64,000 nucleotides of DNA. Origin: Terriglobia bacterium. GTDB lineage: Bacteria > Acidobacteriota > Terriglobia > 20CM-2-55-15. The DNA is taken from positions 4,688,115 to 4,752,114 of the forward strand of contig OZ253536.1 in assembly GCA_965262425.1 (NCBI GenBank). The letters are read 5' to 3'. The notes beneath the pieces were generated by a model, which made no database searches, had not been told where the DNA came from, and saw nothing but the letters and a program-made list of their open reading frames with translations. The position numbers and the translations under genes are program-made. Shown here one piece after another: positions 3,317-58,191 of this stretch. The first letter of the stretch is position 1; every line of letters begins with the position of its first letter.

Positions 3317-3327
3317 GAAGGACCTTT

Positions 3328-3409
3328 ACCGCGAAGGCACGAAGGACGCGAAGCTCGGGATTTCTTCATGCAGAAGTCCAAACCTTCGTTTGCTTCGTGC
3401 CTTCGCGGT
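3328..3409. repeat. Palindromic extragenic element, family CGAAGGCACGAAG (copy 1)
   Basis: accgcgaaggcacgaaggacgcgaag ... cttcgtttgcttcgtgccttcgcggt forms a long imperfect hairpin. It sits between the convergent brx-like and actD genes. The same arm core is found at 35392-35487 and 58105-58191. Confidence 0.6.
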
Positions 3410-3444
3410 GAATTCGAGTCTGTGGGTTCAGGTGAAGTCCGGCG

Positions 3445-6022: not shown

Positions 6023-8257
6023 CTACCTCGAGTGCTCCGAGGGTTCCCTCAAAGCTCCTCCATACAAAATAAGTCCACCCTCTCCTTCGACCTTTTCCAC
6101 ACGGACGCGCGTTGCAGCCCACGCCAGCGCGCCGGTTTCCGGCTCTACAACCGGAGCAAGGATGCGGATCGGATTGGCGCCGCGCCCACTCGCGTACCGG
6201 GTGAAGGTCTCGTGCCCCTGACCGACCGGCATCGCAATGACATCGGGTGCGATCGCGGGTGACACGAAGGCGGGCGCTCGGACCGCGCCGTGTGCGGAGG
6301 TGACCTCGACCAGGTCGCCCTGAACGATTCCGAATCCGCCTGCCGTTTTCGGATTGATTTCAACCCAACTGCACCACATTGCCGATGACAGGACGTCCGG
6401 GAGTTCCTGGAGCCAGGGCAGATGGGCGAGCGATCCATCCAGGAAGGACTGCGAAATGAAGGGTAGAAAATGATACGGATAGTCGCCCGCGTCTCCGTCG
6501 AATTGCGCTTCCTCGAAAGCCGCGGCGCCTCGGTTCGACGTTTGGTCATCGGCCGCCTGGGCCGAGGCCTCGCTCCATATACCACCTTGAGCCTGGGCCA
6601 GCGTCCAGTTGTCGGTTGATTCGTCCGCGGCCGGCAAGGCTTCAAAAGCCAACTGCAACGCTTCCCGGTAAGTCTGCCATGGAAGTGCGGGGTCGAGCGG
6701 CGTGGCCAGGCTTCGTCCCGCTTCAAGCAGGACGTCGGGCATGCCCCGCGTATCGTGAAGCGGGCGCATGGCCGGTGGGGCGACACTTCGCACCGCCATC
6801 GCCGTTCCGGACTCGGGCTCGGAGTCGACCCAGGACTCGAGGAAAGAATGATCGGGTAGAATCAGGTCCGCCAGGTTGCTCGTCTCGTCGATAAACTGAC
6901 CAAAGCTGGCGATGTACGGGATGCTCGACAATGCCTCCATGACACCCCATGCCGGCGGCGCTCCAAAGACCGGGTTGGTGTCGTTCAACAAGAGGACCTC
7001 GATCGGCGATCCGGTGCCGTCACGGATGTCGGAGGCAATTTCTCGGAGTGAACGTCTCGAACTGTTGTCGGAACCTTCCGGGCGGGGCGTGAAGAAGATC
7101 CCGCCCGGTGTCCCGACGCTTCCGCCGAGCGCATTCAGCGCATTCACTGCCAGGGCGTGGAACAGACCGTTGGTCTGTGCCAGCGGCGGCCCGCCGATCA
7201 AGGCGATGGCGGGTCCGTTCTCGGCAAACTCTCGACCCAACCGCCGGACCTTCCGGGCATCGACTCCGGTCAGTCGCTCCACCTCTTCGGGGGTGTAGGC
7301 GGGGAGGCCGTCGGACCAGCCTTCGATCAACAGGCCGGCGCGGCCGGCATCTTCCGCCGAGGCGAATCCGGTATCCATGATGACGTGGGCCAGGCCCAAA
7401 GCCAGAACGCCCTCGGAACCGGGACGCGCCGGAACCCACTCGTCGGCGTTCGCTCCTGTCTGAGACATTCGCGACTCAACCTGGACGAACTTCGCCCGGA
7501 CTCCGGGCCGGCCCTTCCGCATCTCGCCATATGCAACGTTTTGAGAGACCGGAGAGTTCCAGGTTCCGAGAAAGTCCGCGCCGAACCCGATGACATAATT
7601 CGATCGTGCCAGGTCCGGGGTCGGGAGTTGACTGAACCCGTAGCTTGCCAGGTTTGCGCGACGAAGTACGTCCTCACCGAAGACTTCGAACGCTATCGGC
7701 GGTGGAGCGCCGAACCGATCGAGGAACCGATCCACGAGCCTTCCCCGCTGTCCACTGAGGGGACGGGTCAGGAATGCCAGCGCGTTCTGGTTGCCCGCTG
7801 CGGCGAGACCGTCCAACTGAGATACCAGTTCGGCTTGCGCTTCTTCCCACGTGATGGGGGCGAACTGTCCGGACCCACGCTCACCGGACCGTTTGAGCGG
7901 CCCGGTAATGCGATCCGGGTGGTATGTCACCTGAATGGCCGCCTGACCGCGCACGCAGAGTTTTCCCTGGCTGACCGGGTGTTCCGGGTTGCCTTCCAGT
8001 TTCTTGACCAGCCCCTTGGTGACGACGCCGGCCTGGCCGTTTCGGACGACTTCGACATCCCCTTCCATGACGCGGACGGTCAGGCCGCATCCAGCGGAAC
8101 AAAGCGGGCAGATACTGGGTTTCCAGGCCGAGATGCCCGGCACGAGATACTCGTCAGGAAGGAACCGAATCAGCTCGTTTTCCGGGTTTCCGCAACTGGC
8201 AAGTGTGGCGGTCGCGCCGGTGGCCGCGGTGATTTGAACGAATTTACGACGATCCAT
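6023..8257 (-). CDS. actB: ACIII subunit ActB1 (molybdopterin-oxidoreductase-like large subunit with Tat signal)
   Basis: MDRRKFVQITAATGATATLASCG twin-arginine signal with the ATG at 8257 preceded by GGAG. The fold is a MopB-family (molybdopterin oxidoreductase large subunit) fold. In most ACIII this is fused to the FeS domain as one ActB; here it is split. Confidence 0.75.
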   Translation of the reverse strand: MDRRKFVQITAATGATATLASCGNPENELIRFLPDEYLVPGISAWKPSICPLCSAGCGLTVRVMEGDVEVVRNGQAGVVTKGLVKKLEGNPEHPVSQGKLCVRGQAAIQVTYHPDRITGPLKRSGERGSGQFAPITWEEAQAELVSQLDGLAAAGNQNALAFLTRPLSGQRGRLVDRFLDRFGAPPPIAFEVFGEDVLRRANLASYGFSQLPTPDLARSNYVIGFGADFLGTWNSPVSQNVAYGEMRKGRPGVRAKFVQVESRMSQTGANADEWVPARPGSEGVLALGLAHVIMDTGFASAEDAGRAGLLIEGWSDGLPAYTPEEVERLTGVDARKVRRLGREFAENGPAIALIGGPPLAQTNGLFHALAVNALNALGGSVGTPGGIFFTPRPEGSDNSSRRSLREIASDIRDGTGSPIEVLLLNDTNPVFGAPPAWGVMEALSSIPYIASFGQFIDETSNLADLILPDHSFLESWVDSEPESGTAMAVRSVAPPAMRPLHDTRGMPDVLLEAGRSLATPLDPALPWQTYREALQLAFEALPAADESTDNWTLAQAQGGIWSEASAQAADDQTSNRGAAAFEEAQFDGDAGDYPYHFLPFISQSFLDGSLAHLPWLQELPDVLSSAMWCSWVEINPKTAGGFGIVQGDLVEVTSAHGAVRAPAFVSPAIAPDVIAMPVGQGHETFTRYASGRGANPIRILAPVVEPETGALAWAATRVRVEKVEGEGGLILYGGALREPSEHSR

Positions 8258-15297: not shown

Positions 15298-15343
15298 TTT
15301 ATACGATGACAGCTGCTACGGGTTGCACACCGGAACAGTTTTT

Positions 15344-15478
15344 GACGCAGAGACGCAGAGACGCAGAGGGTACATTTGTTTAAGAAAGCCGTGTGTACTT
15401 CCCGCTGGAACTGAGCGCGAACGGTGTAGCGGATAGAGAAATGAAATATCAACTCTGCGTCTTTGCGTCTCTGCGTCG
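15344..15478. repeat. Palindromic extragenic element, family GACGCAGAG (copy 2). It has 3 GACGCAGAG units, an 83-nt spacer, then 3 CTGCGTC units.
   Basis: gacgcagagacgcagagacgcagag ... ctctgcgtctttgcgtctctgcgtcga. The 3' arm is identical to the copy at 343-367. Confidence 0.6.
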
Positions 15479-15509
15479 ATAATCCGTATCAATCTGGCAG
15501 AATATCAGG

Positions 15510-20895: not shown

Positions 20896-21200
20896 GTGTT
20901 GTCTTATACAGTCACCCAGCGGCGCGAAGAACTCAGCATCCGAATGGCCCTGGGTGCCTCCCCGGGATCGGTGCGCTGGTTCGTTGTAGGTAGCGGAATG
21001 CGGCTTGTCGTGCTTGGTGTGTTCGCCGGCGCAGTGGGAGCCTACTTGTCGTCACGTTTCTTATCGTCGGTGGTTTACGGCGTGGGTGTCACGGACGTCG
21101 CGACCTACGCCGGCGTCGCAGCATTGGTCGGCGGTGTTGCTCTGGTGTCCTGTGCTCTGCCGGCAGCATCTCGGATGGACCCTCTCGCCGGCCTGCGAAG
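20896..21200 (+). pseudogene. C-terminal fragment (about 100 aa, last TM helices) of an FtsX/ADOP-type permease. It has no N-terminal part, and its frame runs into the MITE.
   Basis: LSYTVTQRREELSIRMALGAS...CALPAASRMDPLAGLRR matches the conserved FtsX C-terminus (...QRTREIGIRMALGA...PARRAARVDP..). The upstream 280 bp is non-coding. The ORF continues to 21552 only by reading through repeat copy A. Confidence 0.6.
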
Positions 21201-21202
21201 GA

Positions 21203-21368
21203 CTAGGAGCCTGCGCGGCAGAAGGGATCGTAGCGAGAAAGTGGAGAATCGAGGTCAGATTTTCTCGATTTTGAGGCGAATAGTGGTTCTATTCAACGAA
21301 AAATCGGGGGAATATGACCGATTACACCGCTTTCGCAGTAGATCTCTTCTGCCGCGCAGGCTCCTAGG
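21203..21368 (+). mobile_element. MITE-like repeat family 1, copy A. About 166 bp with a perfect 22-bp TIR CTAGGAGCCTGCGCGGCAGAAG and a possible GAAGGA target-site duplication.
   Basis: Near-identical copies occur at 31470-31632, 33434-33598 and, inverted, at 50203-50368. The flanks read gaagga|CTAGGAGCC...GGCTCCTAG|gaagga. Confidence 0.7.
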
Positions 21369-31303: not shown

Positions 31304-31469
31304 GACTGATGTTCTTTCTCCCGCTGATTGGCTGATGGTATGTGGGCCGAACAGGTCCGCGAAGACGAGCCTGACGATCCGCACTCGGACCGAAGTTACA
31401 TTATATGCGCATACCGCCTCCCTTGAATTGGTCCAGACCATCTGCTAGCGTAAGTCCTTTGGTTTGACG

Positions 31470-31632
31470 CTAGGAGCCTGCGCGGCAGAAGGGATCGTAG
31501 CGAGAAAGTGGAGAATCGAGGCCAGATTTTCTCGTTTTGAGGCGAATAGTGGTTCTATTCAACGAAAAATCGGGGAAATATGGACCGATTATACCGCTTT
31601 CGCAGTAGATCTCTTCTGCCGCGCAGGCTCCT
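31470..31632 (+). mobile_element. MITE-like repeat family 1, copy B
   Basis: Same TIR and internal sequence as copy A, with a few substitutions. It lies upstream of the gamma-CA-like gene and downstream of acnA. Confidence 0.7.
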
Positions 31633-32190: not shown

Positions 32191-33437
32191 TCAAATTGGT
32201 TCGTGGTACCTACGACATCCTCCCGCCCGACATCCATATCTGGCACGCCATCGAGGCGGAAATGAGGGCTGTGTTCGAATCGTACTCGTTTAACGAGATC
32301 CGTACCCCAATCTTCGAGTCGACCGAACTGTTCGTCCGGGGAGTCGGGGAAGAAACCGATATCGTTTCGAAAGAGATGTACACGTTCAAGGACAAGGACG
32401 AGAAGACCTCTTTGACTCTCAGGCCCGAGGGAACAGCGCCAGTTGTCCGCTCCTACATTGAACACCATCTTTCTGATGAATCCAGGATGATCAAGCTCTA
32501 CTACATCGGTGCGATGTTCCGTCGGGAACGACCCCAGAGGGGCCGTTTCCGGCAGTTTTATCAGGCCGGAGTGGAGGTTCTTTCTCCCAACGACAACCCC
32601 GCCATCGAGGCGGAGGTTGTCGAAATGCTCATGCTGCTGTTCGAGCGGCTGGAAGTTTCGTCGCTGGACCTGGCTGTGAATTCGATCGGGTGCCGGGAAT
32701 GTCGGCCCTCATACATCGAGAAGCTGCGGAGCGAAATCCGCGGGCGCCGTGAAGGTTTGTGTGAGGACTGTCGCAACCGGGGTGAGAAGAATCCACTGCG
32801 TGTCTTCGACTGCAAAGTGAAATCCTGCCAGGCGCTGATAGGGGAGCTGCCGACGATTACCGACAACCTCTGTCAGGAGTGCAGGGAGCACTTCTCCGGA
32901 TTTCGCGCGTACCTGGATGAAAGAGAGATCCCGTACCGGGTGGAGCCCCGGCTCGTCCGAGGCCTGGACTATTACATGCGAACGACGTTCGAGATACTTT
33001 CTTCCAGCCTGGGGGCTCAGGACACTCTGGTGGGAGGCGGCCGCTACGATGGCCTCAGCGAAGACCTGGGCGGTCCCCCGACTAACGGGTTTGGTTTCGC
33101 GATGGGGCTTGAGCGGTTGATCCTGTCGATTCCGGAGCCCGAAAAGCTGGCGCCGGGACCCGGCCCGGCCTATTTCCTGGCGACAATGGGCGAGGACGCA
33201 TTCCGGTACGCCACGCTTCTGGCACGCAAATTGCGAAAGGCAGGCTGTTCGGTCTATCTGGATTTCGCCGGGCGCAGCCTCAAGAGCCAGATGAGATTGG
33301 CAGGGAAGCTCGGTGCAGCTCAAGTTGTCATGATAGGTGAAAACGAGATCAAGTCCGGGACCCTCATCGTTCGGGACATGAACACCCGGGAGCAAAGGGA
33401 GTTGAGCGAGTCTGAACTGATGGAGACGGGCTGCTAG
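32187..33437 (+). CDS. hisS: Histidine--tRNA ligase
   Basis: 416 aa with class II aaRS motifs and an HisRS-specific N-terminus MIKLVRGTYDILP. Confidence 0.9.
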   Translation: MIKLVRGTYDILPPDIHIWHAIEAEMRAVFESYSFNEIRTPIFESTELFVRGVGEETDIVSKEMYTFKDKDEKTSLTLRPEGTAPVVRSYIEHHLSDESRMIKLYYIGAMFRRERPQRGRFRQFYQAGVEVLSPNDNPAIEAEVVEMLMLLFERLEVSSLDLAVNSIGCRECRPSYIEKLRSEIRGRREGLCEDCRNRGEKNPLRVFDCKVKSCQALIGELPTITDNLCQECREHFSGFRAYLDEREIPYRVEPRLVRGLDYYMRTTFEILSSSLGAQDTLVGGGRYDGLSEDLGGPPTNGFGFAMGLERLILSIPEPEKLAPGPGPAYFLATMGEDAFRYATLLARKLRKAGCSVYLDFAGRSLKSQMRLAGKLGAAQVVMIGENEIKSGTLIVRDMNTREQRELSESELMETGC

Positions 33438-33598
33438 GAGTCTGCGCGGGAGAAGGGATCGTGGCGAGAAAGTGGAGAATCGAGGCCAGATTTTCTCGAT
33501 TTTGAGGCGAATAGTGGTTCTATTCAACGAAAAATCGGGGAAACATGGACCGATTATGCCGCTTTCGCAGTAGATTCCTTCTGCCGCGCAGGCTCCTA
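33434..33598 (+). mobile_element. MITE-like repeat family 1, copy C (the TIR begins inside the hisS stop codon)
   Basis: ctaggagtctgcgcgggagaag...cttctgccgcgcaggctcct. The TAG of hisS is the CTAG of the TIR. Confidence 0.7.
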
Positions 33599-35367: not shown

Positions 35368-35391
35368 TGCCTCTTCGGCGTCACGTCAGTT

Positions 35392-35487
35392 TCTTTTCAA
35401 CACGAAGACACGAAGTCACAAACGAAAGTTGAATTTCATTAAGCCTGATTCCTTCTTCGTGCCCTTCGTGCCTTCGTGTTGAAAAGA
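35392..35487. repeat. Palindromic extragenic element, family CGAAGGCACGAAG (copy 2)
   Basis: tcttttcaacacgaagacacgaag ... cttcttcgtgcccttcgtgccttcgtgttgaaaaga. It lies immediately 3' of aspS. Confidence 0.6.
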
Positions 35488-35533
35488 ATGTTCCGGTGTG
35501 AGGAGCCTTTCGGTAAACGAACGGACGTGGCTT

Positions 35534-38742: not shown

Positions 38743-38993
38743 AATGACCGTCTCCTGACCTGCATTCAGAGCACATCGCTTGCCATGGTGTGCGTCGGGG
38801 TTTTTCGTTCTCTTCGGAAGAACGCCTGACCCATCGCCGCCCCTGCCAGTACGTGTTTGGGCCGTTCAGGACGGGGCGTTTCGGCCGCCGCGTTGTGGAT
38901 GCCGACCGCATTGCCTGTGTTGGCGGAGACGCCGTTCGTCATTGTTTTGACGATCGAGACCCATCGGATGTCAGAAGGATGACGGAACGCTAA

Positions 38994-39204
38994 GGGCCCG
39001 CTCAAGAATAACGTCACATTTTGGCATCCCACCGTCGCGCCATCTTCGCGGACCGTCGCGCCATCTTCGCGGGACCGTCGCGCCATCTTCGGCCGCTCCT
39101 CAATCGCAGATGTCGGGCTATTTCTCCGGTCTGCTCAATCGGTCGCGACCGAATCTGACCGAAATCTGGGCGCCAATTCTGTGAAGTTGTTCTTGAGCGG
39201 ACCC
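38994..39204. mobile_element. MITE-like repeat family 2, copy 1. About 211 bp with an imperfect TIR GGGCCCGCTCAAGAATAACGTCACATTTTGGC / GCCAATTCTGTGAAGTTGTTCTTGAGCGGACCC, and it contains a 3x tandem 21-nt repeat.
   Basis: A second copy is at 57465-57633, with identical internal blocks (caatcgcagatg.cgggctatt.ctccggtctgctcaatcggtcgc.accgaatctgaccgaaatctgggcgccaattctgtgaagtt). Its gtcgcgccatcttcgcgg(g)acc unit is repeated 3x. Copy 2 carries only one related, degenerate unit, cccatcttcacgccaccttcggccgctcc. Confidence 0.65.
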
Positions 39205-39283
39205 TGGATGGAGCGGAAATGGCGTGCCTCGAGACTCCGGGCCCCGATTTGACACTGCCGACCCGTGGTCCTACCCTTGAACG

Positions 39284-50187: not shown

Positions 50188-50202
50188 TGGCTAAAAACCG
50201 TG

Positions 50203-50368
50203 CTAGGAGCCTGCGCGGCAGAAGAGATCTACTGCGAAAGCGGTATAATCGGTCCAGATTTCCCCGATTTTTCGTTAAATAGAACCACTATTCGCCTCAA
50301 AATCGAGAAAATCTGTCCTCGATTCTCCACTTTCTCGCTACGATCCCTTCTGCCGCGCAGGCTCCTAG
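50203..50368 (-). mobile_element. MITE-like repeat family 1, copy D (inverted relative to copies A-C)
   Basis: Both termini are the perfect TIR (ctaggagcctgcgcggcagaag ... cttctgccgcgcaggctcctag). Its internal sequence is the reverse complement of copies A-C. Confidence 0.7.
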
Positions 50369-50455
50369 CCGATCCTCATTTTCTTAAAGTTGGCTGTTCC
50401 AGGAGAAAATTTTGACTGAGGCATGGTGTTCATGACCGCCCAGCCGGCTTCGTAA

Positions 50456-57464: not shown

Positions 57465-57633
57465 GGGCCCACTCAAGAATAACTTCACATTTTGGCATCC
57501 CATCTTCACGCCACCTTCGGCCGCTCCTCAATCGCAGATGCCGGGCTATTCCTCCGGTCTGCTCAATCGGTCGCAACCGAATCTGACCGAAATCTGGGCG
57601 CCAATTCTGTGAAGTTATTCTTGAGTGGACCCT
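57465..57633. mobile_element. MITE-like repeat family 2, copy 2 (about 169 bp)
   Basis: gggcccactcaagaataacttcacattttggc ... gccaattctgtgaagttattcttgagtggaccc. Its internal block is shared with the copy at 38994-39204. Confidence 0.65.
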
Positions 57634-57709
57634 AAGGACGGCACGGTGCGATCTCAGGATTGATATTTACAGAACCCGGAACTACAATCCCAGCCAGGAG
57701 CATCCCAAC

Positions 57710-58104: not shown

Positions 58105-58191
58105 TCTTCAACACGAAGACACGAAGAACACGAAGAAGCAAAAAATAGAAACTTCGCGTGTTTTCGTGACCTTCGTGCCTTCGTGTTGAAA
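58105..58191. repeat. Palindromic extragenic element, family CGAAGGCACGAAG (copy 3)
   Basis: tcttcaacacgaagacacgaagaacacgaagaag ... cttcgcgtgttttcgtgaccttcgtgccttcgtgttgaaa. Confidence 0.6.

Follow-up and report, generated by a model that had tools for sequence, protein, structure and literature searches.

Two related repeats in the window (the whole 64-kb stretch of DNA that was analysed), copy 1 at 38994-39204 (211 bp) and copy 2 at 57465-57632 (168 bp), are probably non-autonomous MITEs of a single soil-Acidobacteriota family with ends of the type found in ISAzo13-family insertion sequences (IS). Judged from sequence, they would be moved by a transposase that is encoded elsewhere, carry an internal array prone to replication slippage and supply no promoter to the adjacent genes; we place the probability of this reading at roughly 85%. 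The earlier note on this DNA had described the repeats as MITE-like, and this description is upheld by their inverted termini and a target-site duplication, by the presence of many copies in other genomes, by orthologous sites that lack the element and by the existence of an autonomous IS with matching ends.

Each copy is bounded by terminal inverted repeats (TIRs), one per end, as had been proposed; they are 25 nt long. Complementarity between the arms is 88% (26 nt) for copy 1 and 96% (25-26 nt) for copy 2. A search of the window for the terminal motif CTCAAGAATAACNTCACA gave four occurrences, one for every end of the two copies, where 0.07 are expected by chance, and none of 100 shuffled windows reached four. 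The coordinates originally assigned hold for both copies except at the right end of copy 2, where 57633 counts the first base of the flanking TAA. When aligned end to end the copies are 94.7% identical over the first 38 nt and 94.5% identical over the last 127-128 nt. The core of about 110 bp previously called identical is indeed shared and homologous, but at 94.5% identity it is similar rather than identical. The sole large difference between the copies is 43 extra nt in copy 1, equal to two more tandem units of 21/22 nt. Sensitive BLASTN detected no other copy or fragment of the element within the 64-kb window. The coordinates of the features are given in Table 1.

Table 1 Features of the two MITE copies and their flanks in the window.
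Feature	Position	Strand	Basis or remark
TAA, the usual target triplet	38991-38993	.	Directly left of copy 1; right side (39205-39207) is TGG, no repeat
Copy 1 left TIR GGGCCCGCTCAAGAATAACGTCACA	38994-39018	+	23/25 (92%) match to right end of IS in L114
Copy 1 tandem array, 2.8 units of 21/22 nt (ACCGTCGCGCCATCTTCGCGGG), each unit two 11-nt half-units	39031-39091	+	Tandem Repeats Finder; holds the 43 nt extra relative to copy 2
Copy 1 core	39092-39179	+	Window sequence, copy comparison
14-bp perfect palindrome TCGGTCGCGACCGA in copy 1 core	39139-39152	+	
11-nt repeat in copy 1 core, period 11, 2.1 copies, consensus GACCGAAATCT	39147-39168	+	
Copy 1 right TIR TGTGAAGTTGTTCTTGAGCGGACCC	39180-39204	+	Motif search, inverted-repeat comparison
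Copy 2 left target-site duplication TAA	57462-57464	.	Flank comparison
Copy 2 left TIR GGGCCCACTCAAGAATAACTTCACA	57465-57489	+	25/25 identical to right end of ISAzo13-family IS in L114
Copy 2 core with base-state array (two 11-nt half-units, CCCATCTTCACGCCACCTTCGG)	57490-57607	+	10-nt deletion relative to copies in other genomes, as in copy 1
Copy 2 right TIR TGTGAAGTTATTCTTGAGTGGACCC	57608-57632	+	Homology to IS right end about 35 nt here
Copy 2 right target-site duplication TAA	57633-57635	.	Flank comparison

The ORFs that overlap either copy (168 and 211 bp) have no Pfam match. Public assemblies of the window's genome carry a 106-aa gene on the minus strand (38766-39086), also without a Pfam match, whose start lies inside the tandem array of copy 1; this is probably a spurious ORF created by the insertion of copy 1, and recognition of the MITE explains ORF calls of this kind.

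The distribution of the family was followed with a scan for the terminal motif in a collection with one genome per species (596 billion bases), which returned at least 105 loci. By our own estimate about 140 matches to the scan pattern are expected by chance, so many of these loci are chance matches and family members were counted only where the homology runs past the motif. Eight matches on viral contigs, all without the GGGCCC prefix, were dismissed as chance. Full-length homologues with 74-91% identity are present in several Acidobacteriota MAGs; the Terriglobia chromosome OZ252023.1 has at least 12 full copies plus fragments, and further members were found in a Solibacteraceae MAG (L047, L083) and at L088 and L091. 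The resemblance between the window copies extends beyond their short termini, from end to end, and is shared with homologues in other genomes. Family copies mostly measure 167-200 bp; outliers reach 406 bp (L056) and 580 bp (L079:6935-7514). The 25-nt terminus alone, attached to unrelated cores, occurs at further loci, among them one in another Acidobacteriota MAG (DASQID...) and others in MAGs labelled Planctomycetota and Desulfobacterota (L027/L068, L041, L077), so that the miniature elements with this terminus form a broader group than the family itself. All 17 copies that were examined are intergenic and none is spanned by a long ORF with high third-position G+C. Five of them abut the stop codon of the neighbouring ORF (i.e. 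they lie at gene 3' ends), a position in keeping with a T(T/A)A target when genomic G+C is about 58%. The window sequence itself recurs with 99.9% identity in long-read metagenome contigs of 5.8-6.2 Mb, and the homologues of the proteins that flank the copies are labelled Terriglobia or Bryobacterales.

The internal array is the most variable part of the family. In copy 1 Tandem Repeats Finder reported a period of 22 with 2.8 copies and 97% matches (39031-39091), underlain by an 11-nt period. The base state, seen in copy 2 and L047, consists of two 11-nt half-units. One extra 22-nt unit is present in L001, L079:2171, L081 and L095 and two in copy 1 of the window, while the longest arrays comprise 6.5 perfect 22-nt units (L079:6965-7107) and 11.9 units of 20 nt (L056). 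Unit length varies between 20 and 22 nt among paralogous copies and each array is near-perfect internally, which indicates repeated, independent and recent expansions. The earlier proposal of recent unit expansion or contraction, for which a comparison of unit number among copies had been suggested, therefore stands for paralogous copies, where the number runs from the base state to about 12 units; no such variation was seen between strains, the array having the same length in five assemblies of 99.9% identity. Among these five assemblies of the window's genome no change was found in the array or in the element, so the copy 1 array is stable on that time scale. Replication slippage is the most likely cause of expansion and contraction, and a variable array of this kind could serve as a strain marker.

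The flanks of the same 17 copies reveal a 3-bp duplication of the form T(T/A)A, with a single TGA case. A TNA triplet stands on the left in 16 of the 17 and on the right in 12, against a background TNA frequency of 5.5%, and left and right triplets are identical in 10 of the 17 pairs, where chance would give 1 in 64 per pair. Copy 2 is perfectly flanked (TAA/TAA); copy 1, with TAA on the left and TGG on the right, has no target-site duplication.

Both window sites are polymorphic for presence or absence of the element, being empty in relatives of 80-96% identity. At the copy 2 site the divergent DUF885/zinc-ribbon gene pair is kept in three relatives (L136, L137 and L138, with DUF885 proteins 96%, 85% and 80% identical, respectively), and the element is absent from all three. 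Without its 168 bp and one TAA the copy 2 site would be 190 bp long, and the corresponding stretch measures 190 bp in L137 and 176 bp in L136. At the copy 1 site the element is absent from L140/L141 and from L142/L143. The closest relative (L136/L140/L141, with L141 on the same contig as L136) shares 94-96% DNA identity, and when aligned with the window its sequence departs at 38991 and matches again from 39232; this relative, with a DNA identity of about 95%, lacks both window copies at the corresponding sites. The two copies have in common a 10-nt deletion (CCTCGAAATA) relative to the copies in other genomes, which implies that both descend from one lineage-specific variant.

Other differences were seen around these sites. 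Comparison of window positions 39205-39231 with L140:2150-2170 showed that 21 nt beside copy 1 (AATGGATGGAGCGGAAATGGC) are missing from the closest relative. In L140/L141 an unrelated element of about 290 bp lies 27 nt beyond the copy 1 site, while L142/L143 have neither element. It belongs to a further MITE-like family, the third in this material, with termini GAGCCCGTGGTGGAAGTCTGTAGGGTCGCG and flanks CGAG/CTAG (L140/L141, about 2168-2444), which also occurs nested in a copy of the present family in L079 (about 7140-7432). The intergenic region upstream of the ABC ATPase gene thus appears to collect insertions. Four copies of a second MITE-like family, unrelated to the present one, about 167 bp long and ending in termini CTAGGAGCCTGCGCGGCAGAAGGGATC, are present in the window (21200-21367, 31469-31632, 33433-33598 and 50202-50370); they are 92-96% identical to a copy in the closest relative (L140:5179-5347). 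The window also contains hairpin elements with arms made of three 8-mers (3325-3412, 15339-15482, 35391-35488 and 58107-58190), for example GACGCAGA three times facing TCTGCGTC three times, or ACACGAAG facing CTTCGTG. In L138, the relative at 80% identity, the copy 2 site is taken up by a related element (about 2320-2430), so the hairpin elements may also be mobile.

A candidate source of the termini was found in other Acidobacteriota MAGs (L053, L071, L075, L084 and L085), where the motif stands at the end of a longer conserved sequence with TAA or TTA before it, and the ORF running into that end encodes an ISAzo13-family transposase (Pfam PF07592, E = 1e-70 to 8e-109). When metagenomes were scanned with a pattern in which the final transposase codons (W-N-Y-T...) run into the terminus, 18 loci matched, and four of these (L111, L114, L122 and L123) end in TGTGAAGTTATTCTTGAG(T/C)GGGCCC followed by TAA. 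One of them, L114:519-2440, is a complete IS of 1.92 kb with TAA/TAA flanks. Its right end is identical to the left end of copy 2 at 25 of 25 positions, the stop codon of its transposase (TGA) sits within the 25-nt terminus (TGTGAAG), and at the right end of copy 2 the homology runs to about 35 nt. The L114 transposase scores 394.5 bits against the NCBIfam model for the ISAzo13 family (NF033519, cut-off 200) and matches Pfam PF07592 with E = 7e-113; NCBIfam also recorded a faint resemblance to IS630. Nine of 11 full-length IS copies have identical TAA or TTA triplets on both sides; in the remaining two, a TTA flank is paired with a TAA flank. The terminal match makes an ISAzo13-family IS the candidate parent of the MITE family. 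In the literature searched, no paper was found that ties ISAzo13 to a MITE family.

The 3-bp duplication could also have pointed to a different mobiliser, as IS5 and PIF/Harbinger are the classes best known for TNA or TAA duplications of this length, and a partner of that kind was the initial guess. It was dropped once the terminus had been located at the ends of ISAzo13-family elements. Movement by an IS5-family or PIF/Harbinger-like transposase is now very unlikely: the T(T/A)A duplication that speaks for it is also made by the IS whose right end, including the transposase stop codon, matches the terminus at 25 of 25 positions, and no IS5-type element with these ends was found.

The derivation of the family from the ISAzo13-type element is not one of simple deletion. 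The left end of the IS (GGGGCGACGCAAAAATAACTACTC) matches its own right end at only about 17 of 24 positions, while both ends of the window MITE resemble the IS right end. Past the terminal 25-42 nt or so the core shares nothing with the IS, and the core and array motifs searched for were absent from both IS types. Two right-end-like termini around a foreign core indicate that the window family is not a simple IS deletion derivative. Such a derivative does exist in a Bryobacterales MAG, where L033:4331-4545 is an internal deletion (about 216 bp) of an L114-type IS that keeps 104 nt of the right end (96% identity) and the true left end; this shows that the L114-type IS does give rise to miniature elements. 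A transposase adjoining the solo termini was sought in L021, L033 and L077 and none was found, the L033 element being the deletion derivative and lying beside a DNA methylase gene.

No ISAzo13 transposase gene is present within the 64-kb window. Relatives of the L114 transposase are numerous (7,953 of 8,000 scored candidates at E <= 1e-40), and the best 120 of the 8,000 all lie on contigs of about 15 kb or less, so that, among these 120, nothing indicates a close relative on the megabase contigs to which the window belongs. Several features of the IS were recorded in passing. In nine of ten full-length ISAzo13-type copies (L112, L114, L115, L117, L124, L126, L127, L075 and L084) the transposase is encoded by two ORFs in a -1 relationship, which overlap at a conserved run of 8-10 A (ACGAAAAAAAAACGCC) at IS positions of about 924-966; in L085 the two are fused into one ORF. 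In sequence terms the overlap resembles a site at which transcriptional slippage or programmed frameshifting takes place. The proteins at L114:724-1485 and L085:2917-4611 are extended at the N-terminus by about 180 residues, which precede the part that aligns with the 387-position ISAzo13 model and match nothing in Pfam or NCBIfam. Two inverted IS copies lie about 1.4 kb apart on a single contig from a soil metagenome (L115:624-5865), a layout like that of a composite transposon.

The element as a whole is a diverged fold-back: once the right half is reverse-complemented, it agrees with the left half at 68% of positions (62/91). Predicted folding is far stronger than for shuffled sequence (z = -9.1, -6.0 and -7.7), and across ten copies 10 of the 59 predicted pairs show two-sided changes that preserve pairing, against 2.9 in shuffles (none of 500 reached 10) and no more than 4 in slid controls. 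We read this as the two arms evolving together since both ends must fit one enzyme, rather than as evidence of an RNA gene. The strong folding (z = -9.1 and -6.0) and the excess of two-sided changes over shuffles and slid controls would also be expected if the core were a structured non-coding or cis-regulatory RNA to which the inverted termini are incidental. We regard such an RNA as highly improbable. Rfam 15 gave no match at the gathering threshold and, with E up to 1, only a meaningless match of 8.8 bits; the pairing of the arms is a string of 2-bp helices broken by 2-nt loops, which is unconvincing as an RNA helix; and the two-sided changes, several of them common to L088 and L091 only, are those expected if both ends fit one transposase. 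The target-site duplications, the empty sites and termini identical to an IS end also argue for an origin as mobile DNA.

A different question is whether the 11-nt-phased repeats of the arms and the fold-back symmetry, kept by two-sided changes, are functional rather than debris of slippage. This we consider unlikely. The phased repeats could be binding sites for the unusually long N-terminal region of the transposase or for a host protein; if so, unit number would tune the mobility of a copy, or DNA bending between neighbouring promoters. It is likewise unlikely, though conceivable, that one ISAzo13 lineage has seeded MITE families across phyla, which would account for the 25-nt terminus on unrelated cores in the MAGs labelled Planctomycetota and Desulfobacterota.

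Both copies lie close to gene starts, as had been noted: copy 1 ends 79 nt before the start of the ABC ATPase gene (39284), and copy 2 is 77 nt from the start of the zinc-ribbon gene (57710) and 55 nt from the conserved ATG of the DUF885 gene (57409). From these positions it had been suggested that the copies could donate or alter promoters. Promoter prediction, proposed at the same time as a check, does not bear this out, as the scan found no sigma-70-like site inside either copy; nor was a terminator-like site found within either element. A strong TTGATA-17-TACAAT site lies between copy 2 and the zinc-ribbon gene (57660-57688) and the motif GTGCAATAAT lies just upstream of the DUF885 start codon; both are outside copy 2 and both are kept in relatives without the element. 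Copy 2 is wedged between two intact divergent promoters. That the MITE has in addition been put to host use as a promoter or regulatory module would agree with the location of both window copies in 5' intergenic regions (of the ABC ATPase gene and of the divergent DUF885/zinc-ribbon pair) and with a TTGAGC in each terminus, facing outward, that matches the -35 consensus at 4 of 6 positions. It is nevertheless decidedly unlikely in view of the lack of a predicted promoter within either copy, the conservation of the neighbouring sites without the element, the five of 17 copies that lie at gene 3' ends, and the fact that relatives manage without either copy. An effect on the neighbours, if there is one, would more likely come from the added spacing or from a long hairpin that would form if the element were transcribed, and the expected function of the neighbouring genes is unchanged.

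The reading of the two repeats as ISAzo13-type MITEs suggests the following history. The element consists of two inverted copies of an ISAzo13-family right end placed around a core of about 115 bp that is non-coding and roughly palindromic. The 25-nt ends would be recognised by a DDE transposase of the ISAzo13 family, supplied by a gene located elsewhere, and insertion would take place at 5'-T(T/A)A-3' with duplication of the triplet; of these, the duplicated triplet and the terminal match are themselves observed. Slippage in the 11-nt-phased repeat of the left arm would then have left copy 1 two 21/22-nt units longer than copy 2.

The two copies represent an ordinary kind of genomic parasite with an internal array that changes in length. 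For the poorly studied ISAzo13 family they define the end sequence, give T(T/A)A as the 3-bp target and add a set of derived miniature elements, the hosts of which are abundant but uncultured soil Acidobacteriota.

Comparison with known systems places the family closest to its candidate parent. The ISAzo13-family IS (NF033519, PF07592) has the same 25-nt terminus at its right end and duplicates the same 3-bp T(T/A)A. ISfinder lists 'Ga/g' ends for the ISAzo13 family, which the window terminus, starting with GG, would fit. The window element differs from the IS in having no transposase gene, in its size (168-211 bp compared with 1.92 kb) and unrelated core, and in that both of its ends are right-end-like, whereas the left end of the IS is only a partial match to its right end (about 17/24). 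The deletion derivative L033:4331-4545 shares the right-end terminus, the T(T/A)A flanks and the miniature size, but is a plain internal deletion, unlike the window family with its two right-end-like termini and foreign core.

REP/BIME-type extragenic palindromes, which are spread by RAYT (an IS200/IS605-like, Y1-type transposase), are likewise intergenic, palindromic and present in many copies. REPs are 20-40 bp palindromes with a GTAG or CGTC head (PMC3733652), and against that definition the window element differs in length (168-211 bp), in its 25-nt inverted termini and in its 3-bp duplication. Its assignment to this class is scarcely credible.

Among other bacterial MITEs, the Correia elements of Neisseria are set apart from the window family by host phylum, termini, partner IS family and duplication. 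They duplicate TA, compared with T(T/A)A for the window element, and their ends carry promoter elements, none of which was detected in the window element. Correia elements, RUP, Nezha and ERIC resemble the window family in their length of 100-200 bp, inverted termini of about 25 nt, intergenic position and strong base pairing, and for Correia and other bacterial MITEs, too, an IS with matching ends has been proposed as the mobiliser (PMC3049150).

The pneumococcal BOX element (boxA - boxB(n) - boxC) is likewise a small interspersed repeat with conserved ends, between which a tandem module is repeated a different number of times from locus to locus. No sequence relationship to the window family is expected, the module here being 20-22 nt and not boxB, and the window family differs also in its clear duplication and candidate partner IS. 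The size ranges overlap, at 67-637 bp for BOX (PMC3049150) and 167-580 bp for the window family, and BOX is the nearest analogue for an element in which ends enclose a variable tandem module (PMC3049150).
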